Shown here: positions 3,288 through 47,253 of the stretch, piece after piece
Numbering within the stretch: the stretch's first letter is position 1
Layout: the number at the start of each line of letters is the position of its first letter
NCBI GenBank assembly: GCA_021771025.1
Contig: JAETPW010000008.1
Coordinates: 355-64,354, forward strand
Reading direction: 5' to 3'
Length of the DNA stretch: 64,000 nucleotides
Origin: Clostridiaceae bacterium
Lineage (GTDB): Bacteria > Bacillota > Clostridia > TANB77 > CAG-508
Position numbers and translations under genes: made by a program
Notes under the pieces: model-generated
What the model saw: only the letters and a program-made list of their open reading frames with translations
The model's database searches: none
What the model was told of the DNA's origin: nothing

Positions 3288-3317
3288 GTTATTTATTAAG
3301 TATATTAGAATTTAAAG
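3288..3317 (+). repeat. Degenerate copy of the CRISPR repeat in the opposite orientation to the main array
   Basis: gttatttattaagtatattagaatttaaag matches the crRNA-sense repeat GTTATTATATAAATATATTAGAATTTAAAG at 26/30 positions, but on the plus strand. It lies beyond the trailer end of the array. Confidence 0.6.
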
Positions 3318-3354
3318 TTATTTTTTATTGTATTGTTTTGTGTTAACTCCCAGT

Positions 3355-4821: not shown

Positions 4822-4999
4822 AGGTCACTAAAATACCCTTGATATTTAAGCTTTCTACTAACCTATTCTGTCGTTCACCAATTATTTTATAACAATCTTC
4901 TACTTTTATAAATGCTTTTTCCAAAATTCATTGAAAATTCAGCCTTTGTGTCGTCTGTCGTACCCCCAGCTTTTTTACATTATTACCGGTCGACAGATT
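4822..4999 (-). promoter_or_regulatory. CRISPR leader (between the cas2 stop and the first repeat)
   Basis: This is a 178-nt non-coding stretch between cas2 and the perfect-repeat end of the array. I did not pinpoint a promoter. Confidence 0.6.
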
Positions 5000-23764: not shown

Positions 23765-23841
23765 CCTTTTGAGTTAATTCTTTTTGTATGAATTTATAAT
23801 TAGTCTTAAACTCTAAAAAATCCTTCAATTCTCTTTTTATT

Positions 23842-25485: not shown

Positions 25486-25511
25486 ATCATTATTCTTTAA
25501 ATCTTTTTCAT

Positions 25512-26336: not shown

Positions 26337-26396
26337 GTTATCTATATCCTTTTTTATAAAGTCTAAGGGAGAATATAGTATCCTCCCTTTTTTTAG

Positions 26397-27143
26397 CTAA
26401 TTAGACTCAAAGAAACTTCTTACTTTTTCTGCAAATAATAGACATTCCTTTTTTTGTTTATCTGTCATATTTTTCTTTGCATACATTGTAATTTTCTTAA
26501 GATTTTTCCCTCTTCCAAATTGGAACATCCAATCATCAGAAGGAATAATCCATCTCCTATAGTGCTCTGAAAAACCATCTTCAAACAGAAGAATATTTTT
26601 GGCTCCTAAATATTCTAATGCTAGTTTTACTCTATTGGTAATATCTTCTATTTGAATTCTTTCACCTCGTGTAAGTTCGGTTGTAGTAGATATATGTTTT
26701 TTTATTCCTATAACAATAAATCCAATAATTGGAACTTCTGGGTCTATCGTTACATTAATAAAATTATCTTCATATAGATATCCACCAGGTAAATTTGTAA
26801 TTGTATGATTTCCTATGGCACAACTTTTACAGCCTTCAAAAACCATCTCTTCGTTTAAGAAGTTAGTAACAGCTACTTCTTCTCCTTTTTGATTTAAGTA
26901 GCATTTTTTTCCTTCCTTCTCAACAACTCCCAGTCTATTTTGGAAATCATCAGCTTTATCATATCTTATTTCGCATATTTGTTTTCCTTTTTGATTGATA
27001 TATCCCCATTTATTTTTTATCCTAACTGCTGCAACATTTTCGCAAAAATCCCGTACTTCATCATAGATAAAATCACAAATAGGTTCATCATTCTCATTTA
27101 CAAATGCCCATTTCCCTGATATTTCTTTTTTCCTGTATAACAT
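26397..27143 (-). CDS. WG-repeat domain fused to a degenerate HIT-like domain
   Basis: The N-terminus has KWAF/KWGYINQKG repeats (WG-containing repeat type). The C-terminus has CKSCAI plus a HIT-like core, but the triad position reads HYRRWIIPS. A strong SD (AAGGAGG) is present. Confidence 0.5.
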   Translation of the reverse strand: MLYRKKEISGKWAFVNENDEPICDFIYDEVRDFCENVAAVRIKNKWGYINQKGKQICEIRYDKADDFQNRLGVVEKEGKKCYLNQKGEEVAVTNFLNEEMVFEGCKSCAIGNHTITNLPGGYLYEDNFINVTIDPEVPIIGFIVIGIKKHISTTTELTRGERIQIEDITNRVKLALEYLGAKNILLFEDGFSEHYRRWIIPSDDWMFQFGRGKNLKKITMYAKKNMTDKQKKECLLFAEKVRSFFESN

Positions 27144-27237
27144 AGATTGACCTCCTTATGGTACTTTGAAAGATAAAATAAGAGTTAATTAGCTAAAAAT
27201 AGTAAAACTATGCACTTATTATACTACGTATATCGTT

Positions 27238-28020
27238 TTATGTCAATTTCCTAAAATTTAATTTCTTAATCATTTTTTCTCCAATAATTTCTATTTCATC
27301 TGGTTTCATATGATGTTTCATATTTTTTATTTCCATAAGTTCTATTTCTGGTCTATCTTTTATAAATTTATATGTATCTTTAATTGGTGCAGTATCATCT
27401 AAAGAACCTTGAATAATAAGTATTTTCCTTTTTTCATGATAAGTATTATATAAATCATTTTTTACTAAATCTTCGTAAAAAGAATAGGGAACTTCTATTT
27501 TTCCATTATGTCCAGATTTAGCTTTTTTATCGTTTCTATATTGTGTAAATGGTTCTTTCAATAAACTATTTATGAAAATATCTTTCATGTTAAATGCAGG
27601 AGATCTTAATATTATATTTTCATAATCTGACTTATCTCCTATTAGTTTGTTTAATAATATATATGCTCCAAAACTAATGGCAAAAAAAGAGATTCTTATA
27701 TTGGAGCTATATTTATTTTTTATATAATCAATAACATTATTAATATAAGAAATACATACATCTACTGTCAATTTATCTGTTCCTTGAACACTATCAATAT
27801 GCCCAGGAAAATCAAAAGAGATCGATTCTATACCATACTGTAATAATTTTTCTGCAACTATTTTGATTGAATTACTGCTTTTCCCACTGCAAAACCCATG
27901 ACAAAATATAAAAATTTGATTATTCATTTTTTTTCCATCATCATAAAATATCTTACCTTTTATCATACATTTTTCTTTTTTATTATAAATATCTATATTT
28001 TTTTCCATTCTTGCTATCAT
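27238..28020 (-). CDS. Alpha/beta-fold hydrolase
   Basis: It has IFCHGFCSG (oxyanion region), the nucleophile elbow AISFGA, IIQGSLDDTAP (acid) and MKHHM (His). Confidence 0.65.
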   Translation of the reverse strand: MIARMEKNIDIYNKKEKCMIKGKIFYDDGKKMNNQIFIFCHGFCSGKSSNSIKIVAEKLLQYGIESISFDFPGHIDSVQGTDKLTVDVCISYINNVIDYIKNKYSSNIRISFFAISFGAYILLNKLIGDKSDYENIILRSPAFNMKDIFINSLLKEPFTQYRNDKKAKSGHNGKIEVPYSFYEDLVKNDLYNTYHEKRKILIIQGSLDDTAPIKDTYKFIKDRPEIELMEIKNMKHHMKPDEIEIIGEKMIKKLNFRKLT

Positions 28021-32812: not shown

Positions 32813-33370
32813 TTAGCTAATTGACTTGATAACTTTGCACGGGTTACCTACAGCTACTACATTTGCTGGTATACTTTTGGTGACTATACTTCCTGCTCCA
32901 ATGACAGTGTTGTCTCCTATGGTTACTCCTTGTAAAATGACGCTATTTCCCCCTATCCATACATTGTTGCCTATGGTGATTGGTTTTACTTGTTCAATTC
33001 CTTCGTTTCTTTTTTCTTTGTCTAGTGGATGGTTTGTGGTATAGAACCCACAGTTTGGACCAATGAAAACATTGGCTCCAAACGTAATTTTGGCTCCGTC
33101 TAATAAAACTAAGTTGTGATTGGCGTAGAAATTTTCTCCTATTTCTAGGTTATAGCCATAGTCACAAAAAAATGGTTGTTCAATAAGAAATTTTTTTCCT
33201 GTTTTTTTGAGTAATTTTCTGATGATTTCTTCTCTTTTGGTTTCGTTGGAAGGATTGGTTTGATTGTAGGCAAAACAAAGTTCTTTTGCTTGTTTTCTTT
33301 CTTCGATTAGTTCAGGATCGAAATTTGGGTTATAGGGCAATCCTGCTTGCCCTTTTTCTTTTTCGGTCAT
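32813..33370 (-). CDS. maa: Maltose/galactoside O-acetyltransferase (hexapeptide repeat)
   Basis: It has an N-terminal Mac domain (LPYNPNFDPELIEERKQAKELCFAYNQT) and left-handed beta-helix hexapeptide repeats. Confidence 0.85.
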   Translation of the reverse strand: MTEKEKGQAGLPYNPNFDPELIEERKQAKELCFAYNQTNPSNETKREEIIRKLLKKTGKKFLIEQPFFCDYGYNLEIGENFYANHNLVLLDGAKITFGANVFIGPNCGFYTTNHPLDKEKRNEGIEQVKPITIGNNVWIGGNSVILQGVTIGDNTVIGAGSIVTKSIPANVVAVGNPCKVIKSIS

Positions 33371-33523
33371 TTGATGTCCTTTCTTTATTCTATTATCCCT
33401 TGGTTATTATTCTTTTTTGTAAATATTTTGTTTTTTCGGAATTATTGTGGTATAATTATGTTTAGGAACTGTTGACCATAGCGAATTGTTTATTAATTCG
33501 CTTTTTCTTGAAAGGAGGCATAT

Positions 33524-33634
33524 ATGTTTATGTCTAATGCAAGGCGCAGAAGATTTCAGCATTTAGTAAATGTTGGGTATTCTGTGTCTCAGGCACTTGA
33601 TATTCTTCTATTTGACGATTTTTTTATTGATTAA
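33524..33634 (+). CDS. 36-aa small protein (MFMSNARRRRFQHLVNVGYSVSQALDILLFDDFFID)
   Basis: A strong SD (AAGGAGG, 6-nt spacing) and its own terminator are present. An extended -10 (TGgTATAAT, 33448-33456) lies upstream. SQALDIL faintly recalls the Spo0E-family SQxLDxLI motif. Confidence 0.4.
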   Translation: MFMSNARRRRFQHLVNVGYSVSQALDILLFDDFFID

Positions 33635-33644
33635 AGGTCGTCCG

Positions 33645-33670
33645 CCCTGTTTGATAACAGGGTGTTTTTT
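33645..33670 (+). terminator. Intrinsic terminator of the small ORF
   Basis: ccctgtt-tgat-aacaggg followed by tgtttttt. Confidence 0.65.
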
Positions 33671-33888
33671 ATGTGTTATGGAAAGGTGCTCTAAAACGCC
33701 ATAATATTTGGCGAACTGCTCAGCCTATAATGTTTAGCTATTATGGCATGAGAAGATATTTCATTTTTAACTCTAATATATTTAAATTAGAATTAATGAC
33801 AAATACTCTTAATTACATATCACTTTACATTTTATGTCTAATTTAAAATCTTTAGTTTAATTATAGTTTATTAACTGATAGATTCATT

Positions 33889-35196
33889 TTATTTTTTTAG
33901 TGCTCTAGCTATTGCTTTAGATAATAACGGCGGTACTGCATTTCCTACTTGAGTATATTGAGCGGTTCTGGGGCCTTCAAACAAATAGTTATCAGGAAAG
34001 CTTTGAATTCTGGCTGCTTCTCTTACGGTTAATGCTCTACATTGTCGTATGTCTGGATGTATGTTGTAGTGTCCGTCTTTACTAATGTGTGCTACAATTG
34101 TATGCGGTATTTCATACATTCCATGTACTTTAAATCTATCTGAAAATTGTTTCTCATTTTTATGTGTTTTTAAGTTTGGTGGTAATTCGTCATAGTATAG
34201 TTTTTGGTTTTTGTTTGCCTTTTCTATAGCTAGTTGATAAATTTCTTTATCTCTATCATTTAATTTTCTAGCTTTATGATTTACTATCCCTATGCTATCT
34301 TTTCTTAAGTATTCTTCATATTTGGATTGTGGCTTAGTTTTGTATTTTACCAATTTTCGATCATGACCTTCCCCTTCTTTTAATTTATTTAAATCCAAAA
34401 TCGCATTTTTTGTGTTTATTTCTTCGTTAAATTTTTCAGCATATTTAGTAAAATCGGGATATTCATAATCTAAATCTTTTCTTACCCCGAATAATATTAC
34501 TCTTTTTCTTGTTTGATATACACTATAGTTTACTGCCTCTTGTAAATTTTCTTTTCTTTCTTCTTTGTTCCCCACTTTAAGTTCATAACCAATTTTACTA
34601 AATTCTATAGATATCTCATCAAATATTTTTCCATCTTGGGCAGAAAATATTCCTGGTACATTTTCAAAAATAAACATTTTGGGTTTATACTTTTTAACCA
34701 TATCTCTATAGTAGTAGAATAAATAATTTCTTTCATCTTCTCTTACTTTTTCTTTCATTCTACTTCTTCCAATAATTGAGTATGCTTGACATGGTGGGCC
34801 TCCGATGATTAGGTCTATTTTTTTTTCGTTAAAAAATTCCATTGATAAATTGATCAACTTGATAATTTCTTTTATATCAGTTGCCTTTTGATCCTTTTTT
34901 GTGTTTCCAAACTTTTTATTTAATACTGTTTTATTTAATATTTCTTTCAATTCTGGATATTTTCCAAAAACTATTTCTCGGTTTTTCTCAATATCATGAT
35001 AGTGATTAGCGGATAATAAATATTTGTTATACATTTCTAGATCATTTTTTTCCCTTAGATAGTAATACATTATTCTTGTTTTCAATGTTTCACAAGCCCA
35101 ATATTCTTTTTCGATATGTGCTATAAATTTATATCCTTCACTTAAAAAACCTTCTGTTAGTCCTCCTGCTCCTGAAAATAAATCAATTACTACCAT
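33889..35196 (-). CDS. DNA (cytosine-5) methyltransferase
   Basis: It has motif I (DLFSGAGG), motif IV (GGPPCQAYS), motif VI (ENVPG) and motif X (QVGNAVPP). Confidence 0.92.
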   Translation of the reverse strand: MVVIDLFSGAGGLTEGFLSEGYKFIAHIEKEYWACETLKTRIMYYYLREKNDLEMYNKYLLSANHYHDIEKNREIVFGKYPELKEILNKTVLNKKFGNTKKDQKATDIKEIIKLINLSMEFFNEKKIDLIIGGPPCQAYSIIGRSRMKEKVREDERNYLFYYYRDMVKKYKPKMFIFENVPGIFSAQDGKIFDEISIEFSKIGYELKVGNKEERKENLQEAVNYSVYQTRKRVILFGVRKDLDYEYPDFTKYAEKFNEEINTKNAILDLNKLKEGEGHDRKLVKYKTKPQSKYEEYLRKDSIGIVNHKARKLNDRDKEIYQLAIEKANKNQKLYYDELPPNLKTHKNEKQFSDRFKVHGMYEIPHTIVAHISKDGHYNIHPDIRQCRALTVREAARIQSFPDNYLFEGPRTAQYTQVGNAVPPLLSKAIARALKK

Positions 35197-35213
35197 TTTT
35201 CTCTCCTATTTTT

Positions 35214-36908
35214 TTATTTACTACATAAAATATACAGTAATAATTTTGCCCTTGATATAGCTACATAATTTAATATGTTTGTGTTTATATTATCCTCTTT
35301 GTTATCTACATCGCATAGTATGACGATTTTTGCTTCTAACCCTTTAAAACTATGTATTGTTGAAAATGTTATGCAGTCTCCTCTTTCTTTTTCTTTATAC
35401 TCTATGATATTTTTTACTTTTGCTATTTCACTTAAAAAATTATTTCCTTTAAATACACTATCTTCATAACTATGTTTTGATAATATGGTAATATCACTGT
35501 CTTGTATGCCATTCATTTTTAGTCTTTTTACTATTTTTTTTATTTCTCTTCTTTGTGAAGCTTCATCATTATAGGTTATGATTTCTACTTCTTCTCCTAT
35601 TGCTTCGTTATTTATACTTTGCATAATACCTGTTATTTTTTGATTTGTAATTGAAATTTGCTTGGTATTTCTGCAATTTTTAGTTAATTTTGTTATACTT
35701 GGTCTTATCTCTTCTAATAATAATTCAAATAACTCATTAAATTCAGTATTGTAGATATTTTGATTTTCATCTAAAGCCATATACCAATTTCCATGTTTAA
35801 TTCCTTTTTCTAAAATTTTATCTAGACATTCTATATACTGCATTTTAATTAGATCTTGTGCTTCATCTATTACCATTGCTTCATAGGGTTCTATATTTGT
35901 ATTGAGGAAGTCTTTTGGTAATGTACTCTCGAAGAATTCTTTTGTATTTTGTGCTCTATACTCAGTATTTTCTTTTTTAACTTGTTCTAACAGATATGCA
36001 TGCAAATTGATTATTTTTATGTTTCTTTTTATTTCTTCATTTTCTTCTTTTAATCTATTATTTAAATGTTTGCTTAGTGTTTTATTATAACAGATAAATA
36101 TTACTTTTTTTCCTAATGCAGCTAATTTTAACGTTTGCTCGTATAGTAATACCGTTTTTCCTGTTCCTCCTGTCCCTTTAATAACTACTCTTTTATTATC
36201 TTCCATCGATTCTAAGATTTGTTTTTGTTCTTCAGTTAATTTGATTAATATTTTTTCAGTTTCCTTTAAGTCTGATGATAGGCTTTGTGAATAACCAAAA
36301 TCACCTCTTATTATGGTTAGTATTTTACTTATATTTGAATGAGTTAGTAATATTTTTGTTTTATGATACTTTTCAAAAAATTTGCTTTTATGATAATCAA
36401 AGATTTCATCAATTATGGTTTTTATTTCTTTATTTTCTAATTTAGGTCTATCTATTGTTATTTTTTCTTCTACATCTATCCCCTGCCAATTAAATTCTAT
36501 ATCGGGAAACGCTACTGCATAGGCAAATTGTATTGTTCCTATATTGATGGTATCATTTTTTATCTTTTTTTTCATATATTCTATTAAGGAATACATATTT
36601 TTACTTACTTGTTCATATGGTCCTTCTATTTTTTTGTATTGTTTTTCTTGTCTATCAGTAAATATCCATATTCCTTCTCTTCTTTCGACTCTCCCCCCTT
36701 TAACTTCAATACATAAAATTCCTTTGGGGCATAGGATGACAAAATCAATTTCTCCTTCTACTTTTTCTATATGTTCTAACATATTTAATGAGTGCATTAC
36801 GATATACTCATCAGGCAGATTTTTTAATCGTTCAAATATTTTTTTCTCCCCTGTGCTACTGTCTTTTGCTATTTGATTTGGTATCATTTTAGCCATATTT
36901 CCTATCAC
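35214..36908 (-). CDS. NERD-domain nuclease fused to an SF1 (UvrD/AAA_30-like) helicase
   Basis: It has an N-terminal NERD-like region (GEIDFVILCPKGILCIEVKGG), Walker A (GTGGTGKT), VIDEAQD and a C-terminal UvrD_C-like region (TIHSFKGLEAKIVIL...ISRAK). The stop lies 17 nt from the methyltransferase start. Confidence 0.7.
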   Translation of the reverse strand: MIGNMAKMIPNQIAKDSSTGEKKIFERLKNLPDEYIVMHSLNMLEHIEKVEGEIDFVILCPKGILCIEVKGGRVERREGIWIFTDRQEKQYKKIEGPYEQVSKNMYSLIEYMKKKIKNDTINIGTIQFAYAVAFPDIEFNWQGIDVEEKITIDRPKLENKEIKTIIDEIFDYHKSKFFEKYHKTKILLTHSNISKILTIIRGDFGYSQSLSSDLKETEKILIKLTEEQKQILESMEDNKRVVIKGTGGTGKTVLLYEQTLKLAALGKKVIFICYNKTLSKHLNNRLKEENEEIKRNIKIINLHAYLLEQVKKENTEYRAQNTKEFFESTLPKDFLNTNIEPYEAMVIDEAQDLIKMQYIECLDKILEKGIKHGNWYMALDENQNIYNTEFNELFELLLEEIRPSITKLTKNCRNTKQISITNQKITGIMQSINNEAIGEEVEIITYNDEASQRREIKKIVKRLKMNGIQDSDITILSKHSYEDSVFKGNNFLSEIAKVKNIIEYKEKERGDCITFSTIHSFKGLEAKIVILCDVDNKEDNINTNILNYVAISRAKLLLYILCSK

Positions 36909-36932
36909 ATGTTAGCTTTCAAAGCCAACATA

Positions 36933-37016
36933 TTTCCCCTTTCTTCATATTAGTAAACTTTGAAATCTTTTTTAGAATGGATGGGTGATAATTATTTTTC
37001 ATCCTTTTGCTATAGA
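36933..37016 (-). repeat. Conserved leader element, copy upstream of the NERD-helicase gene
   Basis: About 70 percent identical over 84 nt to 38893-38976, and about 80 percent over the central 50 nt, including taaactttgaaa and gtgataatta. Confidence 0.75.
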
Positions 37017-37115
37017 TTGACTTTTGGCTAATCTACTTTTCTTTTCTTGCTATTTGTTTTAAGGCTTATTTAATTTAGACATTTTCATTTTTTATTCTTT
37101 ATTCATATAGTCTAT

Positions 37116-38882
37116 TTATCTTTTTTCATTTTCATAGAATTCATTAAAAAAACCAATTTCTAGATTGTCTAGTTTTCCTCTTATTGCTGCTCTGTCTAGC
37201 AAAATATTTCTTAATTCACAGCTTGTTTCTGGTATAAGTAGGCAAGCATGACAAGCAGCTAAATTTAAGTTTTTATATCCAGATTGTTCCCTTTCTATAC
37301 ATAATGGATCTGTAGAACACCAAGCTATATTTTCTATGGTTTTTTCTAATATTTTTCTAAAATTTTGCGTTCTTCCTTGTTTTACTAGTCCTCCTAAGCT
37401 ACCATCTGCATCGCTTGATGTTGTATAAATCAATATTCCTGCCATATCAATCGTTCCTTCTTCAAAGGTGGTATAGATTCTCTCTTTTAAGGCGGCTGAG
37501 GAATATCCACATTCAAATGTTAGTTGCCTGATGATGGCATGAGCCAGTGTATGTAATAATATTGTTCTTGGTGCTATTGTCTTTTTTAATCCTTTTAAAT
37601 ATCCTTCTTCTTTTCTTTTTATTATTGAATGATATCTATTGATTACTTGCGATTTATTTTCCCATTTTTGTATTTCTTCTTCATTGAATTCTATAAATAT
37701 ACCTTCCCCTTTTTGGTTTACTCCTGGTAACCATTTTTGATTTATTTTATCGGTTAGTCTTGTGTAGGTATTGCTGTCTGTTAGATCATATTCTGGATTT
37801 ATTCTTTTGAATCCGACTTCTACAATTGTTTCTGTCATTTTTTTGATAAGCATTATTTTACTGATATATTTGTTTATAAATTCTGGTACTACTTCTTCTT
37901 TTGTGATAAATTCGCCTTCATTAGTTTCATTGGCTAATGCTCTATATTCATCTTCTAATAATTCATGATAAGTTAAATCATCTCTATTTTTTTCCTCGAA
38001 AACTGCATCTATGTTTTTCATTGCCATGTCTGTTGTCAGATTATATAGTCTTACTAATCTTTTTATTAGCGGTTTCTTTAATTCTTCTTTTGTCTCATAA
38101 TCTTCTTTGTTGTTTTGGTAGAATTCTTCAATTTCTTGGCTTATTATTTTGCTCCATGGTGGTATTAAGATAGAACTTATTGTTATGGGAAAATACACAG
38201 ATGAAGAAGATCTTTGTAGGGTTGTAGCCCATTCATTACATTCCTCTTGTTTGTCTCCTAACCAAGGTATATCTCCTTGGCATTTAATTACATTTTGGTT
38301 AAATGCTTGCCCCATATTTCTTTTTTTTCCACATTTACATTGTATCACAATGGATTTTAGATCACCTGTTTTTCCAGTATCATAAATTATCATTTTTTGA
38401 CGGCAATCTGTTGCTCCTTCATGTACCCATTCACGATACGGGAAGTCAGATATATGCCCTTTTTCACAGGCTACTACAAATCTTGATGGTATTACTTCTT
38501 TTGCCTTACAAATTTCACTATTGCACACTATTTTTTTCTGGTATAAATCAAATTCTGTATATGGTGCTAATTTTTGACATATTGGACAATAGTACCATTT
38601 AGGAAATCGATAGGCTTCAATATCCTTTGAATAATTCTTATTTTTTTGGTCTTTAGCAAAGGGAGGCATTAAAAAATATTCTTTTCCTAATAAATTTTCT
38701 AATCTAATATTATGTATTTTTAATTCTTCTTTTTTACCATATGTTTCCCATGAGTCTATTCCTGAGATAATCACTGATGCTTCTTTTAAATCAACTATCG
38801 CTCCTGCTCCCATTGTTGTGATTAACTGATTTCTTCTCAGATCCCCTTTTATGTTACCTTCTTGTTTTCTTTCTATTTCCAT
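37116..38882 (-). CDS. DUF1998-type zinc-binding protein (DrmB-like)
   Basis: 588 aa with multiple Cys pairs (CPICQK, CNSEICK, CKCGKK) and the C-terminus AACHACLLIPETSCELRNILLDRA, which is typical of DUF1998. It lies immediately downstream of a large DEXH helicase. Confidence 0.65.
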   Translation of the reverse strand: MEIERKQEGNIKGDLRRNQLITTMGAGAIVDLKEASVIISGIDSWETYGKKEELKIHNIRLENLLGKEYFLMPPFAKDQKNKNYSKDIEAYRFPKWYYCPICQKLAPYTEFDLYQKKIVCNSEICKAKEVIPSRFVVACEKGHISDFPYREWVHEGATDCRQKMIIYDTGKTGDLKSIVIQCKCGKKRNMGQAFNQNVIKCQGDIPWLGDKQEECNEWATTLQRSSSSVYFPITISSILIPPWSKIISQEIEEFYQNNKEDYETKEELKKPLIKRLVRLYNLTTDMAMKNIDAVFEEKNRDDLTYHELLEDEYRALANETNEGEFITKEEVVPEFINKYISKIMLIKKMTETIVEVGFKRINPEYDLTDSNTYTRLTDKINQKWLPGVNQKGEGIFIEFNEEEIQKWENKSQVINRYHSIIKRKEEGYLKGLKKTIAPRTILLHTLAHAIIRQLTFECGYSSAALKERIYTTFEEGTIDMAGILIYTTSSDADGSLGGLVKQGRTQNFRKILEKTIENIAWCSTDPLCIEREQSGYKNLNLAACHACLLIPETSCELRNILLDRAAIRGKLDNLEIGFFNEFYENEKR

Positions 38883-38892
38883 TTTTTAAGCC

Positions 38893-38976
38893 TTTCCCCT
38901 TTTCATCGTATTATAAACTTTGAAAGCTTACCTAGACTGGGTGAGTGATAATTAGTTTTGCACCTTATTACTATAG
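38893..38976 (-). repeat. Conserved leader element, copy upstream of the DrmB-like gene
   Basis: See 36933-37016. The element ends 10 nt before the ATG and contributes its AAGGGGA SD. Confidence 0.75.
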
Positions 38977-39052
38977 GCTAGCTTTCTAAGCGGTCTTTGT
39001 TATCTTTCTAACATGAATCTCTTTTATCTAATCTAATAGCTAGAACTTTTTC

Positions 39053-42000
39053 TTATTCTACCACAAATATATTGGATGTTGTATCTACATTTCTCATTGA
39101 GTTTAATGTGATAAATCCATTTGTACTATTTTCGTTTTCGTCTGTACGTATTAACAAATGCTTTTCCCCATTTGATGAATACGAGTAGGTTAGATTTTCT
39201 CCATCTGTTATTTGTTCCCATTTTTCTATTATTTTTTCTAAATCTTTTTTTGCTTGTTCTGTTTCTTCTTTATCTACTATTTCAATTCTTTTTAGTATTC
39301 TATCTGCTAATGTATATATTTCTTCTATCTTTTCTTTAATTTTTCCAGCGCCTTTTTCTTCTTTCATTTCTGGTATAAACTGTCTGGCTAGGCTAATGAG
39401 TATAGCATGCAATGCTTTATCTCTTGCCATACTGGAAAAAGGTGTTACACTTGTTGCTTCAACGTATTTGTATATATTAGAATGATACGTTATAAATTGT
39501 TCATAATGTGATTTATCTCTTGATTTTGTTGCATTATATAAATTTATCACTATTGATGGTGTTTTTCTTCCTACTCTACTAGATGCTTGTATGTATTCTG
39601 AATTTAATTTAGGTTGTCCATTAATAATCATTACATTTAATCGATCAATATCTATTCCCACTGAAATCATATTTGTTGCTAATACATAATCTTGAGCTCC
39701 TCTTTGTGGATAAGACGTTTCTAATGTATGTAATATTTCATCAATTTCGCCTTTACCTGTATTTCTACTGGTTATCTCTTTCATTTTATCAAAATAGTGT
39801 GTTCTCATTCTATCAGATGACATTATATTTTTAAATTTCTTTGTACATAAATATTTATACCTATCAACAACGTCATTTCTAATTTGTACTACTGCTCCTC
39901 CTAATTCACGTATACTGTTAAAATATCCTACTTCTGTCCAAAAGCTATCTACTACTTTTTCTGAATATCCTTTCTCTTTAAGGTATCTTGTAGCATAAAA
40001 TATTGCTGCATATACCCTTATTAGTAAGGTAACTGGTGATATATTGGTCGATATAGTACCGATATACATTCTTGTGGCTTTTTGTTTTTTATTACCTTCT
40101 TCTGCAAAAAATGAATTGGTAATGTCTTTTATTTGTGTTGGAAATATATTACTTTTACGTGCATAGAGAGATTTTATTTGTTCATCAGCATTTCTGATTG
40201 TTGCTGTTGAGGCTATTATTTTGGGTCTTATCCCTTTGCTTGAACAATATTCATCCACAATTGTTTCATATAGGCCTGATATTGTTCCTAATGGTCCAGC
40301 AATGAGGTGTAATTCATCTTGGATAATTAATTCTGGTGGTAATATTTTTTCATTGTCTAAGCCAAATAGTTTTCCTACTTCTGCTAACCATGGAATTCTT
40401 GCATATTTATCAATTGTACTAATTAGTAATGTAGGTCTTCTTTTATAAATTTCTTCGTCAATTAGATAGATTGGTAGGTATCGCTGTATTTCACATTTGC
40501 CACATCTTATGCCTATTCTATCTTGCTGATTTAAGTCATATTGATCTGGTTTTATTGTTTCCCCACACCATGGGCATCTTTTTATTAAACATGGAGTATT
40601 TTTGTTTCTAAATTTTTTATCTATATAATCTTTTATTTGCCTTTTTCCATTTTCTAGTCGAGTTTCTGTATTTTCTCCTACCCATAGTCCTATAGATATT
40701 TCTTCTTTCCCTAATTTTTCTTCATTTTGTTGTCTTAATAATTCACAGGAACATATTAATGTGGCTGCTCTTTCAAATTGTTGTAAAGTTAATAGTCTTA
40801 ACGTGTATCTCATAATGGCTACTGTTCCTATCTCGCTATTTCCTTTTTGAGTTTGCTCTATTTTTCTTAAAAATATGGTAAACGCTAACACTCCTAAATA
40901 AGCCTCTGTTTTTCCTCCTCCTGTAGGAAACCATAATAAATCCACTATATCTCTATTAGGATCATTTTTGTCAATGATTCCATCTAGGGTTAATAAAATA
41001 AAGGCAAGTTGAAAAGGATACCATTTAGGTGTATCATTTGCTTTCTTCTTTTTGTTCATTTGCCTTAACATGGCTTTGTTCATCAGTTGGAAGGCTTGAA
41101 AAGCTTCTTCTTTTTGATGTAATCTATTAATCGTATTAATGATTCTTTGGTTTACTTGTTTTGCTTTTTGTATATTCTTTTTTAGTATCTCTTTTTCTTT
41201 TTCTGAAAGAGTATCGTCTTTTTCTTGTTCCTTTAACCATTTTTCATATTCTTCTGGAAATTTTTTTAATTCTTTGTAGATCGTGTCTCTATTGCTAATA
41301 GCTAAAAATTCCATTTCTCGATATTGGTTTGTTTGTGTTGTTGTGGGGATCATTTGATTCATTGTATATTCTGGTATTACTTCAGTCCATATTCTATTCG
41401 TTTCTCTTCCTTTTCTTTCCCACATAACCGCTGTATTATTTCCAACAGCTAAATTCGTTTTATTTTTATATAATAAATTTAAGTTTTGTAATTCATCATC
41501 ATCTATTTCACTTACTTTTATTTGTTTTTCAATAAATATATTTGTTCCATCAAGAGAAGCTATTTCCATTTTTACTTGCAAAAATGATTTGTTGCAAATA
41601 GAAGTTGGACTTTCTTCTTTTTCAGCTATATATTTATTGATTAATGATATGGTAGCTGTTTTAGTATGGTCAGTAAAAACTTTGTAGGTAGTTATTCTTA
41701 TTTCCAGTCCTTCATTTACTTTTATTTTACTTCCATTTTTTATCTCTACTTCTTGTTGCCATTCTTTTGGGATTCTTTTCCATTTTCCTTTTTCTTGTTT
41801 GAAATATTGTGCATAAGTTATCTTTATGATTAATTTTTCTATGTTATTTTTTATGTTACAAGATATACCTATAGATGCCTGCCTTTCTGTACTTTCTATG
41901 TTTACACTATCGTTTTCTTTTGCATCATCTTTATTTTCAAGGTTTTCGAATGTTTCATTATTATATTGGCTTACTCCCTGTGGGTACAAAATTCCTAAGC

Positions 42001-42115
42001 TATACGTTTTTATAGGGAGTTCATTTTCAATTATTTCTTCTTCTTCGACTGGGCCAACTAGTTCTTTTTTTAGTAGTTCATATATTTCTTCTCTTGCTCT
42101 GTCATATTCTTCCAT
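39053..42115 (-). CDS. Large DEXH-box helicase (DrmA-like)
   Basis: 1020 aa. It has motif I (FPTGGGKTEAYL), motif II (IIQDELHLI), motif III (STATI) and motif VI (QASSRVGR). The first ~380 aa are unassigned. Its SD lies inside the end of the upstream gene. Confidence 0.7.
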   Translation of the reverse strand: MEEYDRAREEIYELLKKELVGPVEEEEIIENELPIKTYSLGILYPQGVSQYNNETFENLENKDDAKENDSVNIESTERQASIGISCNIKNNIEKLIIKITYAQYFKQEKGKWKRIPKEWQQEVEIKNGSKIKVNEGLEIRITTYKVFTDHTKTATISLINKYIAEKEESPTSICNKSFLQVKMEIASLDGTNIFIEKQIKVSEIDDDELQNLNLLYKNKTNLAVGNNTAVMWERKGRETNRIWTEVIPEYTMNQMIPTTTQTNQYREMEFLAISNRDTIYKELKKFPEEYEKWLKEQEKDDTLSEKEKEILKKNIQKAKQVNQRIINTINRLHQKEEAFQAFQLMNKAMLRQMNKKKKANDTPKWYPFQLAFILLTLDGIIDKNDPNRDIVDLLWFPTGGGKTEAYLGVLAFTIFLRKIEQTQKGNSEIGTVAIMRYTLRLLTLQQFERAATLICSCELLRQQNEEKLGKEEISIGLWVGENTETRLENGKRQIKDYIDKKFRNKNTPCLIKRCPWCGETIKPDQYDLNQQDRIGIRCGKCEIQRYLPIYLIDEEIYKRRPTLLISTIDKYARIPWLAEVGKLFGLDNEKILPPELIIQDELHLIAGPLGTISGLYETIVDEYCSSKGIRPKIIASTATIRNADEQIKSLYARKSNIFPTQIKDITNSFFAEEGNKKQKATRMYIGTISTNISPVTLLIRVYAAIFYATRYLKEKGYSEKVVDSFWTEVGYFNSIRELGGAVVQIRNDVVDRYKYLCTKKFKNIMSSDRMRTHYFDKMKEITSRNTGKGEIDEILHTLETSYPQRGAQDYVLATNMISVGIDIDRLNVMIINGQPKLNSEYIQASSRVGRKTPSIVINLYNATKSRDKSHYEQFITYHSNIYKYVEATSVTPFSSMARDKALHAILISLARQFIPEMKEEKGAGKIKEKIEEIYTLADRILKRIEIVDKEETEQAKKDLEKIIEKWEQITDGENLTYSYSSNGEKHLLIRTDENENSTNGFITLNSMRNVDTTSNIFVVE

Positions 42116-42126
42116 TTTATACTCTC

Positions 42127-43972
42127 CTAATCTTTATTCCATATTAGCTCTCCAAACCCCTCTAGTTCTATTCCTATCCACATTCCTGTTTTAGCGTATA
42201 TGTTTTGTATTTCACTCGGAATAAACTCTTGAAACATTGCCATTGTTGTGGTTCGTTTTATTTTTACTTGTGAATATATTTTGGGTTTAAAGCTCATTTC
42301 TTTTACTTTGTTTAACTCTTTTTGAGCCTTTTCGTATAAATCTTCTATATTCATTTTTCCTATTTTTCTTTTGTTATGATAGATATAATATTGATCCTCT
42401 TCTAGCACTAAATCTACATAATCTCCTTTTTGTACATAATTTTTAAGATATTCTATATTTTCTGTTGCATTTCCAACAATTTTGTCATTGATAAAACTGG
42501 TTGTATCTATGTCTTTTTCTAATCCAATTTCTATTTTTCTAATACTTTTATCCGTCTGCCCTTTTTTCTTTTTCTTGTAAGTATATTCTATATATCTTTC
42601 TTCTTGTAGTATTCGCCTATAATTTCTTTTTTGATTATTATTTTCAAAACTAATTTTATAACAATTTTTCTTTGCTCTTGTTATGGCTACATATAATAAT
42701 TTAGCATAATCGGTAATAATTTCATTATCTCTTCTTTCTTCTATTTCTTTATCTAAATAGGCATTTTCAAATTCTTTTCCCTTGGCTTTGTGTATCGTAG
42801 ATATTACTACTTTTTCATTTTCGTCGCTATTTTTCATTTCCATGTTATCTGAAATTATGATATTTTTGTGCATTTCTTCAATGTCCAAAATTTCTTCTTT
42901 TCCCTTTTCTATTTCTTTGCAATAGTTCCAATAACTATCTATTTTTTCTTGTTCTGTTATCTGTAGTTTGTGAAACACTTTGTTTTCAAAATCTTTTTTT
43001 CCTATTATACTTTTTTCATGATCACTGAATAGATAACCAATCCAACTTGGATAGTTGATGTACTTTTCTGTATTTAATAAATTATGTTTTATGTTTATGC
43101 TTCTTGATATTTCATATGCTTTCCCATTTCTTCTGGTTAAAATTATTCCTTCTTCTATGTCTTCTACTTTTCTAGTTGTGATATTGGTTAATATTTGTTG
43201 AATGAGATAATCCATCATTTTTTCGTCTTTGGATTCTATAGCTGATCTTAGCAATACTGCTTTTTGATCTAATATTGGAGTTAATCTTTTTTGTTCTTTA
43301 TATTTTATTTTTGTTGCTTCACTAAATAATGCCTCTAATATAGAATAAAATTTTTTGGATGACATTTTTTCTGATTGATAGTCATATATTGCTTGGCAGT
43401 TATCTCCTAATAAGGTAAATCCTGCATTATATATATTCAAAATCGTTAATACTAATTCTGCTCTTATCCCGTACAATATCCTGTACTTCGTCTATTATAA
43501 TGTGTTTCATCTTTTTTATTGAATTTTGCAAATTTTGATTATTTTTTATTAACTGCAATACATATTCAATTCTTGTTTCATAGGTTGTATTATTGAAAAT
43601 TTTTTTATAATTTTCTGTTTCTATTTCTTTGATAACCCATGAACAGAATGAGTCTATTGTTCTTATCGTAATTTTCTTTTTTTGTTCTTCTCCTATTTTT
43701 AATTTGCATTTTATTTGTTGTACTGCACTTCTTGAAAAACAAATTACTAATATTTCTTCTAATGGTGCAATTGAGTTTTCTACTATATACTCTATTTTTT
43801 TACGTACTGTATATGTTTTTCCTGTTCCTGGCGGAGCATTGACAATAATTTGTTCATGGATATTTGCTTTTATTACTTTTTCTTGTTCTTTATTTGCTTC
43901 TTCCATTTTCTCTTTCTTTTCTCTTTTTTTCATTATTGTATCATATTGTTTCTTTTTTCTCAACCAATTCAT
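42127..43972 (-). pseudogene. UvrD/Rep-like SF1 helicase interrupted by a 1-nt frame disruption at ~43468-43474
   Basis: The N-terminal ORF carries NAPPGTGKTYTV and IIIDEVQDI. The C-terminal ORF continues with the expected FTLLGDNCQAIYDYQ, TIHKAKGKEFE and VAITRAKK. The frames switch within gtacggg. Confidence 0.7.
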
Positions 43973-44035
43973 GTCATATTTTTGGGTTTTCTGTCAAAAA
44001 AAGTTACCGTTCATAGTTTGCTGAAAATGGTAACT

Positions 44036-44066
44036 AAAAAGTACTGATTAAGTTTCAGTACTTTTT
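44036..44066 (-). terminator. Bidirectional terminator after the GmrSD-like gene
   Basis: aaaaa-agtactga-ttaagtt-tcagtact-tttt. Confidence 0.6.
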
Positions 44067-44093
44067 ATCTTTCTTTTTAAATTGTGCTTTTTA

Positions 44094-45902
44094 CTAAATC
44101 CATCCTTTAGCACGATATTCTTTAATTTTATTCAAATCTTCTTCACTTGGTGTTGTTTCTTTATCCTTTATTTGGTTGTCGTATTCCTTTACCCATTTCG
44201 TTAATATAGTTTGTATAATTTCTGCTATTTTTTCATCTCTAGCATCTATATTTTCGAGTTTCCAATCTTCTTCCTGTATTTTTTCCATGTTCTTTGTGAT
44301 TTGGATATTGGATTTTCGGTAAAATTCTTTTTTCTTTCCAAAATATCCGTTTCCCGCTTCTATGTTCAGCTTTTTTTCGAATGGAATTTTATTTCCGAGA
44401 TGTTCAATTTTGGCTTTTATTTCTTCATCTGTTTTATCTTGATTTTCAAAGTAATTGGCATGCCATTTTTGTGGAAATATATGTTCAATTTCCCATTTTT
44501 CTGGCAGTCTTTCTTCTTGTTCTCTTTCTTGATAGGCTAGTACTTTTAATAACATTCTTACGGTATTGTTGTGAGGTGTTTTTACTCTTTCCTTGAATTC
44601 TGTCGGATTAATTGTTAAGGAGTTAAATTGTGGAATTTCCGTTTTTATCATTTCTGCATTTAGTTTCATGATGTCTGACTTAACGGCATTAATGGTTGGT
44701 ATTTCTAGGTATTTTACGGTTAGAAAAGCAAAAAATCTTCGCAAAAATAGGAGAAATTGATTTTCAAATTCTGGATTTTCTTTATTTTTTAAGTAGTAAG
44801 TGATGACTGGATATTTCCAAAATTCGTTCGGATAGGAATTTAAGGTGTCTAACATTTTTTGTATTTCTAAATTTTCGGACCATTTTTCGTTTTCTATTGT
44901 TTCTCTTTTATTAATGACTATCCAAAGAGTTAAAATTTTGTTTAAATTTTCTAATAAATCTTTTTGATATAGTCTTTCAAATTTCTTTTCTGAAAAGTAT
45001 TTTCTTAATCCCGGTGTTGTGGTTTTGATGTCTCCTTCTACTGCTCTTAAATAGAACATATAATAATAGAATAAATGTTGAATACTTTCTCCTGCTTCTT
45101 GTGCGTTACTGTCTAGTTCCTTCCATTCTTGAATAAATTCTTTTCTTTCCTTTTTGTCTGAAATTTGGTTATAGATTTTTGCTTTGAATATATCGGCATC
45201 TGATAATGGTAGTCCTCGGTTGTTTAGGGTAGAAAATATGGTTAACGCTGTTTCTTGATTGTCTGCACTGATGGGTAGTAGTATAGCTTTGTTTAATAGA
45301 TTAAAAATAAAAGTATATATTTTTAATGGATTTTCTAGAGAAGCTTTTTCGTATAGTTCTAAGAATTTTCGATAGTTTTTGGAATAGTTATCTTTTGCCT
45401 TTTCGTCGGCTTGTCCTGTTTCTAGGATGTGTTTTAATATTTGGTTACCTTCATCATTAATTACGTATGAGGTTAACAATATTTCTGAATAATTTACTTC
45501 TCCTGTTAAATTGTCAGTTTTCCATATGGCTGGTTCTATTTGTTTGATGAAGTTGTTCGCTTCTTTTGTACGGTTTTGTATAGCCATTAATTTGGTATAG
45601 ATTGCTCTTAGTAATAAAAGTAAAGAGGTAATTCTTTGTTGACCGTCAATAATTTCTTGTTCTTTTTTTTCATTTTCAAATGAAACAATACTTCCTAAAA
45701 AATAGGATGTTTGTGTGCTTTCTTCTTCGTTTGTGTTATTGGTAAATTCCCATAAGTCTTCAAATAGTGTTTCTATTTGCTCCTCTGTCCAAGCATAAGG
45801 TCTTTGGTATTCTGGTATGATAAATGGTTTTTCTTTTCCTCCTTCTAATAAACTTTTTACACTTTGTTTACTTACTGATATTTCTGTTGCCATGATTATC
45901 AT
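44094..45902 (-). CDS. GmrSD-like type IV restriction enzyme (DUF262 + DUF1524)
   Basis: The N-terminal DUF262 signature is FIIPEYQRPYAWTEEQ and DGQQR. The C-terminal His-Me finger is WEIEHIFPQKW ... HLGNKIPFEKKLN. Confidence 0.8.
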   Translation of the reverse strand: MIIMATEISVSKQSVKSLLEGGKEKPFIIPEYQRPYAWTEEQIETLFEDLWEFTNNTNEEESTQTSYFLGSIVSFENEKKEQEIIDGQQRITSLLLLLRAIYTKLMAIQNRTKEANNFIKQIEPAIWKTDNLTGEVNYSEILLTSYVINDEGNQILKHILETGQADEKAKDNYSKNYRKFLELYEKASLENPLKIYTFIFNLLNKAILLPISADNQETALTIFSTLNNRGLPLSDADIFKAKIYNQISDKKERKEFIQEWKELDSNAQEAGESIQHLFYYYMFYLRAVEGDIKTTTPGLRKYFSEKKFERLYQKDLLENLNKILTLWIVINKRETIENEKWSENLEIQKMLDTLNSYPNEFWKYPVITYYLKNKENPEFENQFLLFLRRFFAFLTVKYLEIPTINAVKSDIMKLNAEMIKTEIPQFNSLTINPTEFKERVKTPHNNTVRMLLKVLAYQEREQEERLPEKWEIEHIFPQKWHANYFENQDKTDEEIKAKIEHLGNKIPFEKKLNIEAGNGYFGKKKEFYRKSNIQITKNMEKIQEEDWKLENIDARDEKIAEIIQTILTKWVKEYDNQIKDKETTPSEEDLNKIKEYRAKGWI

Positions 45903-46045
45903 TTCTCCTTTTTGCTTTATTTTATTACATTTTTGTTTTTATAGCAATATGGTATTGGTTTTATCTTGAATTACTTTTCAAACTAATTGGTTGAATTACG
46001 AAAAATTCATTTGACAATGCTAAAAAATCATACTATTATATAGTT

Positions 46046-46123
46046 ACATTAAACAATGTACTCTCGTTCGGGGTGTGTTATATTGTTTACCTGTATGTGT
46101 ACCTCAATGCACATACTTTTTTT
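46046..46123 (+). ncRNA. Candidate small RNA (promoter-to-terminator unit of ~78 nt)
   Basis: TTGACA (46011-46016), a 17-nt spacer, then TATTAT (46034-46039). The terminator is gtatgtg-N10-cacatac plus T7 (46093-46123), with an internal 8-bp stem taaacaat/attgttta. No SD-led ORF is present. Confidence 0.3.
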
Positions 46124-46259
46124 ATGTATAGAAATAAAAGAAAAGGAAAGCACCTTCAAATACTTTCCCATTCTGACTATATAATGATACTTTTAGAATA
46201 TTAACTAAATGGAAAAATTATGCCCCTACATATCATAAGTCAATAGTTGGTTAAAGCTT

Positions 46260-46295
46260 AAAAAACAAGGAACTGCAAAATGTGCAATTCCTTGT
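46260..46295 (-). terminator. Terminator downstream of tRNA-fMet
   Basis: The hairpin caaggaattgca/tgcagttccttg has one mismatch and is followed by U6 on the minus strand. Confidence 0.6.
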
Positions 46296-46302
46296 ATAAT
46301 TT

Positions 46303-46378
46303 TGGTTGCGGGGGTAGGACTCGAACCTACGACCTTTGGGTTATGAGCCCAACGAGCTGCCAACTGCTCCACCCCGCG
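46303..46378 (-). tRNA. Initiator tRNA-fMet (CAU)
   Basis: The minus-strand sequence is CGCGGGGUGGAGCAGUUGGCAGCUCGUUGGGCUCAUAACCCAAAGGUCGUAGGUUCGAGUCCUACCCCCGCAACCA. It has the C1xA72 mismatch, three G-C pairs closing the anticodon stem, a CAU anticodon and an encoded CCA. Confidence 0.93.
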
Positions 46379-46539
46379 ATGTATTGACTTTATTATTATA
46401 CCTCTTCATGCTTACTTTTGTCAATACTTTTTGGAAATTTCATGAAAATCGTATCTCTTATAGTATATGTTAAATCTTAAATAAGTATTCCTATTTAGCC
46501 TTATTTTCTTTCATTTCTTTGTTTTCTTAGCCTTTTTGT

Positions 46540-47253
46540 TTAGCACTCTATTTCATCACCATCTTCTTTTAGTAGAATTCTATTGATTGGGTGTTTTTTT
46601 AGTTCTTCTCTAGTAGATTCTCTCAAGTGGGTAGGGATGATAATTCCTTCTTTTTCTGATATTAATTGGGTTAAATCTTTAATTCCCATGTGCTCTTTTG
46701 TACTAGTAATGAGTGAACAGTCCGCAATCATTATTTCTGATTGTTTCCAAATTTTGCTTACTCCTTCTCCTGGTCCAGTGTCTCCTGTTAATCCTATTTT
46801 GTGATTAATACTATATCCATATGCTTCTACTATATCCCCATGTTGCACTCTAATAGGTTCTATTTTATATTTTTCTAACTCTATTGTTTTTCCTTCTTGC
46901 ACTTCTTCAAAATAGAATTCGCCCATTTGTTTTATTTCCTGTTCATTTTCGAAATAGTAAGTTTGGAAAAGTTTAATAATTTGTTCTTTTATCCCTTTTG
47001 GTCCATAAATCGTAATAGGCTGTGTTGATTCTATATGAGATAGATATTTTAAGAGAAATGGTGTATCTGCCATGTGATCTCCATGAAAATGAGTAATTAA
47101 GACTGTTTTGATTTTTTCTGGTTTAAATCCTCGCTTTAATAGTTGTTTTACTGTTCCATTTGGTGTATCAATTAATAAATCATCATTAATTAGGGTACAA
47201 GCACTATGGTATTTGGTGTATATTGCCCCTGTTCCGATTAGTGTTAGTTTCAT
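46540..47253 (-). CDS. MBL-fold metallo-hydrolase
   Basis: HFHGDHMAD (HxHxDH) motif; 237 aa. Confidence 0.8.
   Translation of the reverse strand: MKLTLIGTGAIYTKYHSACTLINDDLLIDTPNGTVKQLLKRGFKPEKIKTVLITHFHGDHMADTPFLLKYLSHIESTQPITIYGPKGIKEQIIKLFQTYYFENEQEIKQMGEFYFEEVQEGKTIELEKYKIEPIRVQHGDIVEAYGYSINHKIGLTGDTGPGEGVSKIWKQSEIMIADCSLITSTKEHMGIKDLTQLISEKEGIIIPTHLRESTREELKKHPINRILLKEDGDEIEC

Follow-up and report, generated by a model that had tools for sequence, protein, structure and literature searches.

A DISARM-related operon downstream of tRNA-fMet

We analyzed a 64-kb stretch of the Clostridiaceae contig JAETPW010000008.1 (hereafter the window), in which an initial annotation had proposed, at positions 33889-45902, a defense island resembling the DISARM system. 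Seven open reading frames (ORFs) of this island make up six genes beyond tRNA-fMet, all of which lie on the minus strand. Their coordinates, which agree with the initial annotation, and the domain searches both bore out the gene order it had read: a GmrSD-like gene, a UvrD-like helicase gene, a DrmA-like helicase gene, a DUF1998 gene, a gene for a NERD nuclease fused to a superfamily 1 (SF1) helicase, and a C5 DNA methyltransferase (MTase) gene. Catalytic motifs are intact in all six proteins, including Walker A and B of all three helicases. We read the locus as two defense modules that adjoin downstream of tRNA-fMet, a stand-alone GmrSD and a five-gene operon, and a single functional DISARM-type operon with a separate GmrSD beside it is the probable arrangement.

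DrmA, encoded at 39053-42115 on the minus strand, is a superfamily 2 (SF2) DExH helicase of 1020 aa with the motifs GGGKT and DELH and a zinc-ribbon insert, and it matched the PADLOC DrmA model (E = 5.5e-232), the structure PDB 7S9V (4.7e-132) and Pfam Helicase_C (1.7e-8). DrmB (37116-38882, minus strand), the zinc-binding DUF1998/MZB partner of DrmA, was recognized by Pfam MZB/PF09369 (4.1e-10), by PADLOC DrmB (8.3e-94) and by NCBIfam DrmB_fam with 523 bits (cut-off, 240), and its cysteine cluster is present; the DUF1998 domain predicted earlier for this 588-aa protein was confirmed by the PF09369 match. Two genes that define DISARM are thus found here, drmA for an SF2 helicase (pfam00271) and drmB for a DUF1998 protein (pfam09369) directly after drmA. 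The Shine-Dalgarno sequence of drmA, AGGAGAG, overlaps the stop codon of the UvrD-like gene and so does lie within the end of that gene, as had been claimed.

Directly after drmB in the conserved order, in the slot of DrmC to which it had been assigned, lies the gene for the NERD (PD-(D/E)xK) nuclease-SF1 helicase fusion (35214-36896, minus strand), hereafter the NERD-helicase. Its start was taken as ATG 36896, while the mechanical ORF starts at GTG 36908 and the database form is 560 aa long. The protein matched Pfam NERD (2.4e-15) together with SF1 domains, as well as PADLOC RTasNERD-Hel (1.3e-56) and C3a187 "NERD+UvrD" (1.1e-37), and D55, E68, K70, the Walker A motif GTGGTGKT and the motif DEAQD are invariant across 10 homologues. 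The PADLOC Nhi model aligned with residues 200-466 only, at 2.7e-8, far more weakly than RTasNERD-Hel. From these sequence features, the NERD-helicase is predicted to be the nuclease effector in the DrmC position. [quoted passage not shown]

The last gene, separated from the NERD-helicase gene by a 17-nt gap that was read from the sequence and equals the one noted before, encodes a DrmMII-type C5 cytosine DNA MTase (33889-35196, minus strand; Pfam PF00145, 3.4e-58; PADLOC DrmMII, 7.1e-176). Its motifs I, IV, VI and X are intact (FSGAGG, PCQAYS, ENV and QVGNAVPP), and the operon thereby contains the pfam00145 gene drmMII of class 2 DISARM.

DrmC and DrmE are absent from the operon

The initial annotation had seen neither a PLD-domain DrmC nor an obvious DrmE, and this was upheld by the Pfam, PADLOC and motif searches. 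No PLD domain was detected in the seven ORF products with Pfam or PADLOC, the HxK(x4)D motif is missing from all of them, and the assigned ORFs leave no room for a further gene in 33889-45902; no PLD is hidden in any ORF. The third gene of the DISARM core, drmC (PLD, pfam13091), is therefore missing. The domain was also absent from every related locus checked, and because of this its absence appears to be the ancestral state of the branch and not a recent loss. Likewise, the window proteins gave no DrmE or DrmE_C match, including in searches relaxed to E <= 1 with the C-terminal domain of the UvrD-like protein and the DrmA N terminus, so that drmE, an occasional accessory gene of class 2 DISARM, is lacking as well. 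Since drmA, drmB and drmMII are present and drmC and drmE are not, the locus is DISARM-related and not a canonical member. Nor is it a Gabija system: despite GajB-like matches of the UvrD-like protein, no GajA-like gene was found in the island among the ORFs or by Pfam or PADLOC searches.

The five genes form a conserved cassette

Contigs with NERD-helicase homologues were examined at decreasing identity. At least 10 divergent loci (L001, L002, L005, L011, L012, L030, L091, L123, L126 and L128) carry the five genes in the same order, with junctions that overlap or span at most about 70 nt and with NERD-helicase identities of 51-74%; identity to the window protein is 73% in L123, 69% in L001, 57% in L002 to L004 and 51% in L005. 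A scan of JGI metagenomes with the UvrD alignment returned L091 as the only close relative, and it has all five genes. All members of the window's clade have the MTase gene, always directly after the NERD-helicase gene. From this comparison, the five genes evidently constitute one conserved unit and not a chance stack.

We then classed NERD-helicase loci at the species level, keeping one genome per species and 80 loci, by tblastn with the window proteins; 7 of the 80 were too short to classify. The order UvrD-DrmA-DrmB-NERD-helicase (layout A) was found in 29-30 of the loci, with UvrD present in all 25 that had enough upstream DNA, and the range of this four-gene core extends from Clostridia to a plasmid of Rhizobium rhizogenes. 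The order NERD-helicase-DrmA-DrmB (layout B) accounted for 18-19 loci (L043, L058, L060, L064-L066, L076, L078-L084, L087, L089 and L090 among them), from Gemmatimonadota, Pseudomonadota, Actinomycetota and Rhodothermota. In layout B, the NERD-helicase is preceded by a gene with DrmE_C (9e-9 in L081; 1.2e-7 in L060), a C5 MTase lies nearby, and no PLD is seen. Altogether, of about 73 informative loci, about 49 have the NERD-helicase next to DrmB or DrmA, from many phyla and in two fixed orders, with junctions that overlap or are shorter than 20 nt whether or not an MTase is present. These results answered the earlier question of whether the NERD-helicase and DrmAB co-occur across genomes, and because the fixed orders recur across species-level loci, we regard the NERD-helicase as a regular, positionally fixed partner of DrmAB. 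The conserved core appears to be UvrD-DrmA-DrmB-NERD-helicase, with the MTase as a frequent but optional member. The neighbors of the cassettes include type I restriction-modification (RM), AbiE (AbiEii), Mrr, EcoRII and DUF2357/McrC-like genes; thus, the loci are defense islands.

The more distant layout A loci add two genes upstream within the operon, one for an unknown or coiled-coil protein of 270-430 aa and one for an ATPase that resembles Hsp70 and has about 480 aa (Pfam HSP70, 6e-41). These are found in L006, L016, L021, L023, L031, L052, L061, L062 and L068 (about 1-2800) and in L008, L020, L033 and L085 (fused, about 200-4940); no PADLOC model matches either protein. The UvrD-like protein is longer or fused in some of the distant layout A loci, reaching 1580-1640 aa.

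Some further features of the relatives were recorded. NERD-helicases 48-52% identical to that of the window also occur as solo genes, at 10001-11758 in L013, between ABC-transporter genes, and at 10001-11761 in L014, adjoining a serine recombinase and a Schlafen/AlbA_2 protein, which suggests that the module can be autonomous or mobile. In layout B, a NOV_C/DUF3883 protein follows DrmB in L081, and an AIPR/MzaE-like gene and an AspBHI-like type IV enzyme adjoin the genes of L060. At the strain level, drmA is split into 331 and 699 aa in L003 and L004 (intact, with 1035 aa, in L002), drmB into 148 and 441 aa in L005 (intact in L030), and the UvrD-like gene of L011 is disrupted at an A9 run (391-401). 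Such breaks in drmA, drmB and the UvrD-like gene could be inactivating mutations, hinting at a costly system, or assembly errors.

The UvrD-like gene carries a candidate +1 frameshift site

The UvrD-like gene is split into two ORFs, at 43427-43972 and 42127-43476. Its zero-frame N-terminal part (43472-43972, minus strand) encodes the front half of an SF1A helicase, with the Walker A motif APPGTGKT and motif II DEVQD (Pfam UvrD-helicase, 4.5e-19), and the zero frame continues to a stop at 43427. The true start is likely ATG 43906 (M23), because homologues begin at the equivalent of M23; a promoter-like sequence, TTGAGA-17-TACAAT, lies ahead of this codon at 43963-43935. The +1-frame part (42127-43470, minus strand; 447 aa) contains motif III GDNCQAIY and domain 2A (Pfam UvrD_C, 8.7e-12). 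The family profile matches PcrA (6e-21), and the two fragments match PADLOC GajB models (8e-16). The protein ends in a conserved C-terminal domain of about 170 aa, whose AF2 model (pLDDT 89) had no match below E = 1 in a Foldseek search against the PDB.

The break falls directly after helicase motif II, in the sequence …GAC GAA GTA CAG GAT ATT GTA C GGG ATA AGA…, where the zero frame reads DEVQDIV and the +1 frame GIRAELV…. The candidate shift site is GTA-C-GGG (43468-43474, minus strand): the extra C at 43471 creates the zero-frame codon CGG (43471-43469) and precedes the +1-frame Gly codon (43470-43468), so that the predicted trans-frame junction peptide is …IIIDEVQDIVGIRAELVLTILNIYNAGFTLLGDNCQAIYDYQSEK. 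An identical extra C, making a zero-frame CGG at the same codon (GTN-C-GGN), was found in seven lineages: that of the window with two independent samples of the same species (L117 and L118), L001 (3766-3772), L002 to L004 (3750-3756 in L002), L091 (about 10439-10445), L123/L124 (about 3765 in L123), L126/L127 (about 2440 in L126) and L128 (about 2518). Synonymous divergence among these split lineages is saturated, and the flanking codons vary synonymously, with GTA, GTT or GTG for Val and GGG, GGA, GGT or GGC for Gly. The same split is seen in independent samples of the window's species, with samples of the identical locus that include a mouse-gut metagenome, and in the protein database about 20 of the 24 UvrD-like clusters at 90% identity in the clade are split. 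Single-frame genes, which read DEVQDIVGIRA at this place, occur in the sublineage L011/P0122-P0125 and throughout a sister clade at 40% identity.

In DNA of about 27% GC, no stop codon interrupts the +1 frame for 447-456 codons past the site. The ratio of nonsynonymous to synonymous substitution rates (dN/dS) in this region is 0.16-0.4, with 0.22 at a dS of 0.24 for the unsaturated pair L123-L126, and it is indistinguishable from that in comparisons with the intact-frame lineage. Because the frame is open and dN/dS is low, the C-terminal part is, as far as sequence can tell, translated. The shift site is thus kept in diverged homologues and followed by a region under purifying selection, and the zero-frame A-site codon is rare and presumed slow to decode: CGG encodes only 5 of the 425 arginines in 42 host ORFs of the window, fewer than any other Arg codon does (0.37 per 1000 codons). 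Regarding initiation within the gene, no conserved start codon or Shine-Dalgarno sequence was found near the junction across the lineages compared, and in L001 the +1 frame lacks ATG, GTG and TTG codons up to a distance of 35 codons from the junction. The gene had initially been called frameshifted. That the reading frame is interrupted is real, but the same C in seven lineages and a dN/dS of about 0.2 argue against decay and for a conserved recoding or split site.

The GmrSD module, intergenic repeats and island borders

The GmrSD-family gene (44094-45902, minus strand) encodes a type IV, modification-dependent restriction endonuclease that unites DUF262 (GmrSD_N, 4.4e-38) and DUF1524 (GmrSD_C, 3.3e-17), the combination that marks this type, in one protein; PADLOC HEC-06 matched at 3.7e-51. 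The motifs DGQQR at residue 86 and EHIFP at residue 473 (His-Me finger) are present. A 13-bp hairpin at 44035-44067, found by consensus scan and in the sequence, separates the gene from the operon and precedes the promoter-like sequence of the UvrD-like gene; it is likely the GmrSD terminator, in agreement with the one that had been placed after this gene. No GmrSD match was found in any related locus outside the window's species. Because GmrSD never accompanies the cassette there, it constitutes a stacked module of its own, outside the conserved cassette. Of the two options left open by the initial annotation, a DISARM variant or stacked systems, the former therefore fits the conserved five-gene cassette and the latter GmrSD only.

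Two copies of an element of about 150 nt, some 77% identical to each other and sharing the core AATTATCACYCAYCCAKTCTA…TTTCAAAGTTTA, occupy the drmA|drmB gap (38883-39052, minus strand) and the drmB|NERD-helicase gap (36909-37115, minus strand), and the end of each copy is the Shine-Dalgarno sequence of the gene that follows. In relatives these junctions measure only about 15 nt, and the element is confined to the window's species. No further copy was found in the window, in the loci of other species or in viral contigs, no Rfam family matched, and no significant RNA fold was predicted (z = -0.96 and +0.57).

The tRNA-Met(CAT) gene (46303-46378, minus strand) was called by ARAGORN and matched the Rfam tRNA family with 65.5 bits. 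It shows, on reading the sequence, a C1xA72 mismatch and a GGG/CCC anticodon stem and is therefore an initiator tRNA; a consensus scan gave it a promoter (46424-46395) and a terminator (46295-46265) of its own. The distance from tRNA-fMet to the GmrSD start is 400 nt. The tRNA had been proposed as an insertion hotspot, and of this proposal only the adjacency stood. No integrase was found in the island in the ORF list or by Pfam search, a search of 33300-46450 gave neither direct repeats of the tRNA 3' end nor att-like repeats, and no empty site was recovered, as every contig of the same species is broken at the tRNA. Insertion of the island at tRNA-fMet is therefore unproven. The GC content of the island, 26-30% against 30-35%, in a window of about 30%, differs only slightly.

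Just upstream of the tRNA, a gene for a metallo-β-lactamase (MBL)-fold protein (46540-47253, minus strand) has Pfam matches that include Anti-Pycsar_Apyc1 (PF23023) and a sub-threshold NCBIfam match to a cyclic-nucleotide-degrading phosphodiesterase (5e-13); the product is possibly a relative of RNase Z or an Apyc1-like enzyme encoded by the host. At the far end of the island, a 36-aa ORF (MFMSNARRRRFQHLVNVGYSVSQALDILLFDDFFID; 33524-33634, plus strand) with AGGAGG as a strong Shine-Dalgarno sequence and with an intrinsic terminator (33643-33664) lies convergent with the MTase gene inside a 518-nt gap. Elsewhere in the window, positions 23000-28000 have an unusually low GC content (21-28%) and a strongly negative GC skew relative to the rest.

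DISCUSSION

We favor the view that the five-gene operon is a branch of the DISARM family without DrmC and DrmE, in which the NERD-helicase replaces the PLD nuclease and the UvrD-like gene sits where layout B has DrmE. A number of observations weigh against it and against the frameshift reading of the UvrD-like gene. DrmA reached 918.6 bits with NCBIfam DISARM_DrmAS, just below the curated cut-off of 950, and the inserted repeats lengthen the gaps of the operon and could perturb its expression. About half of the more distant layout A loci have no adjacent MTase (none in L016; a separate EcoRII pair in L020), so that self-marking by methylation is not general to the family. No DrmAB lies near the NERD-helicase in 24-26 of the 80 species-level loci, and because of these and the solo homologues the NERD-helicase can probably act alone. 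The defense activity, the methylation motif and any physical coupling of DrmAB, the NERD-helicase and UvrD are all inferred. At the shift site, +1-frame re-pairing of the P-site Val tRNA is not possible, the lineages share no Shine-Dalgarno-like stimulator upstream, and one sublineage (L011, P0122) manages with a single frame.

The loci without DrmAB and the solo genes of L013 and L014 also speak for stacked independent systems, that is, an autonomous Nhi-like NERD-helicase, with or without an orphan C5 MTase, beside a minimal UvrD-DrmAB and with no interdependence. Nhi is a known single-gene nuclease-helicase defense, its PADLOC model reaches the helicase region of the window protein, and the MTase of the close clade always directly follows the NERD-helicase. 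Against this stand the tight junctions and two fixed orders in which the NERD-helicase adjoins DrmB or DrmA in some two-thirds of the informative loci, and the presence of UvrD in every layout A locus that could be judged; such conservation is not expected from chance stacking, and we consider stacking unlikely. That the cassette is instead a housekeeping DNA repair module of the MrfA/YprA-MrfB type is extremely unlikely. The DUF1998/MZB domain owes its Pfam name to the MrfA repair helicase, and UvrD-like helicases are classical repair proteins, but the best matches are DrmA and DrmB and not MrfA, the distribution is patchy with one instance on a plasmid, the neighbors are RM, Abi and type IV systems, and a C5 MTase and a NERD nuclease are linked in the cassette.

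For the interruption of the UvrD-like gene, a programmed +1 ribosomal frameshift is the likely explanation, given the conserved extra C and rare CGG, the synonymous variation of the flanks and the open downstream frame under purifying selection. A decaying, nonfunctional DISARM remnant, with a UvrD-like pseudogene, DrmC and DrmE lost and repeats inserted, would account for the interrupted frame, for the two elements found in the junctions of this species only and for the sporadic breaks in drmA and drmB of relatives (L003, L004 and L005). It is nevertheless very unlikely, since the same single C recurs in seven lineages at saturated synonymous divergence, 447 downstream codons remain open in AT-rich DNA with a dN/dS like that of the intact-frame lineage, the catalytic motifs of all six proteins are intact, and the PLD domain is absent from every relative checked. 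The main alternative to the frameshift is a genuinely split gene that yields two polypeptides, an N-terminal fragment with motifs I-II and a C-terminal fragment made by re-initiation or from a noncanonical start. Both ORFs are conserved, a TTG lies two codons upstream of the +1-frame Gly codon in the window and in L002, and the P-site tRNA that cannot slip and the lack of a visible stimulator would pose no difficulty to it. L001, however, has no usable start codon near the +1 junction, no properly spaced Shine-Dalgarno sequence was seen, and the extra nucleotide is always C and always makes CGG, which a plain split needs in neither respect; split helicases, moreover, are not usually broken between motifs II and III of a single RecA-like domain. 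We therefore hold a split gene to be rather unlikely and retain the frameshift as a candidate.

Joining these conclusions, the locus would represent a widespread, unnamed DISARM-family system with the NERD-helicase as the DNA-degrading effector of DrmAB, together with a bona fide programmed +1 frameshift in one clostridial clade; as a whole this is a possibility that we advance tentatively. In such a system, DrmMII would methylate a host cytosine motif and so mark self. On incoming DNA that is unmethylated, DrmA-DrmB would load at single-stranded or 5'-overhang ends and use ATP to translocate, and the NERD-helicase, as a dedicated nuclease effector, would supply the DNA cutting for which canonical DISARM has no convincing source. 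The UvrD-like helicase may be an obligatory accessory motor comparable to GajB or to ArmD of ARMADA. In the clostridial clade of the window, its full-length form would be made only upon a +1 shift at the rare CGG (GUN-C-GGN), which would probably hold the full-length helicase at a low, set level.

These features matter for DISARM in general. DISARM has been defined by the core triplet drmA, drmB and drmC (PLD), to which class 2 adds drmMII and sometimes drmE (bioRxiv 10.1101/2021.12.28.474362). DrmAB is ATP dependent, requires displacement of a trigger loop before it loads on 5'-overhang single-stranded DNA, and is dampened by methylation (PMC9142583; bioRxiv 2021.12.28.474362). DrmC, in turn, the only candidate nuclease of DISARM, is dispensable, was not copurified with DrmAB and is frequently lacking in annotated operons, leaving the DNA-degrading step unexplained (PMC9142583; bioRxiv 2021.12.28.474362), and recruitment by DrmAB of "DrmC or other nucleases" has been proposed (PMC9142583). 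How DISARM destroys or blocks foreign DNA is thus unsettled, and a branch with a DrmAB-linked nuclease offers a genetic and biochemical handle on it: in every case the layout A branch has, beside DrmAB, another nuclease to which a motor of its own is fused. A sizeable set of DrmAB systems escapes tools and definitions based on the drmABC triplet.

The UvrD-like site, for its part, is a clean frameshift candidate with seven independent sequence witnesses inside an immune gene. To our knowledge, very few conserved programmed +1 frameshifts exist in bacterial cellular genes. If true, this one would be a rare case of bacterial recoding outside prfB and could tie the dosage of a defense protein to the state of the tRNA pool.

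Comparison with known systems

The closest parallel to the shift site comes from glass-sponge mitochondria, where +1 shifting at CGG_A (and UGG_A) sites has been interpreted like that of yeast Ty3 (PMC5009743). There, as in the UvrD-like gene, a very rare CGG arises from a nucleotide inserted immediately 5' of a GGN codon for Gly (PMC5009743). With known +1 frameshifts in general, the window's site shares that it is kept while the flanking codons drift and that the downstream frame is under selection. It differs in lying, as a candidate, in a bacterial chromosomal defense gene and in having no in-frame stop at the shift, and unlike prfB it has no Shine-Dalgarno stimulator.

Among defense systems, the operon is closest in gene content to class 2 DISARM, represented by drmE-drmA-drmB-drmC-drmMII of Bacillus paralicheniformis (Ofir et al. 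2018, as summarized in bioRxiv 10.1101/2021.12.28.474362). Going by that summary, the two have in common a split YprA-type DrmA plus DrmB and a DrmMII-type C5 MTase in one operon within a defense island, whereas the window lacks DrmC and DrmE, has the NERD-SF1 fusion after drmB and the UvrD-like gene before drmA, and belongs to a wider family in which the MTase is optional. With class 1 DISARM of Serratia sp. SCBI, known from the 7S9V/7S9W cryo-electron microscopy structures (PMC9142583), it shares a homologous DrmA (4.7e-132 over the helicase core) and a DrmB that passes its curated cut-off, but it has neither the SNF2 protein DrmD nor the N6-adenine MTase DrmMI, and its DrmA measures 1020 aa against 1325 aa.

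A literature search on DISARM, DrmA or DrmB with NERD, UvrD or Hsp70 found no description of either layout. [quoted passage not shown] ARMADA type II (ArmA-D; Bell et al. 2025, PMC12458937) likewise combines a YprA-family helicase, an MTase and a GajB/UvrD-like SF1 helicase, the last of which is obligatory there. ARMADA, however, has a single-polypeptide YprA with a fused Vsr nuclease, a PglX-like (N6) MTase, a BrxHII/SNF2 helicase and a UvrD-like protein with a RelE-like domain, in contrast to the split DrmA and DrmB, the C5 MTase and the NERD nuclease fused to a second SF1 helicase in the window. Finally, Nhi and the PADLOC types RTasNERD-Hel and C3a187 resemble the window's NERD-helicase in placing an N-terminal PD-(D/E)xK-type nuclease before an SF1 helicase. 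Compared with Nhi, whose model matches in the helicase region only, the window gene and about two-thirds of the related loci are distinguished by being embedded next to DrmAB in a fixed order.

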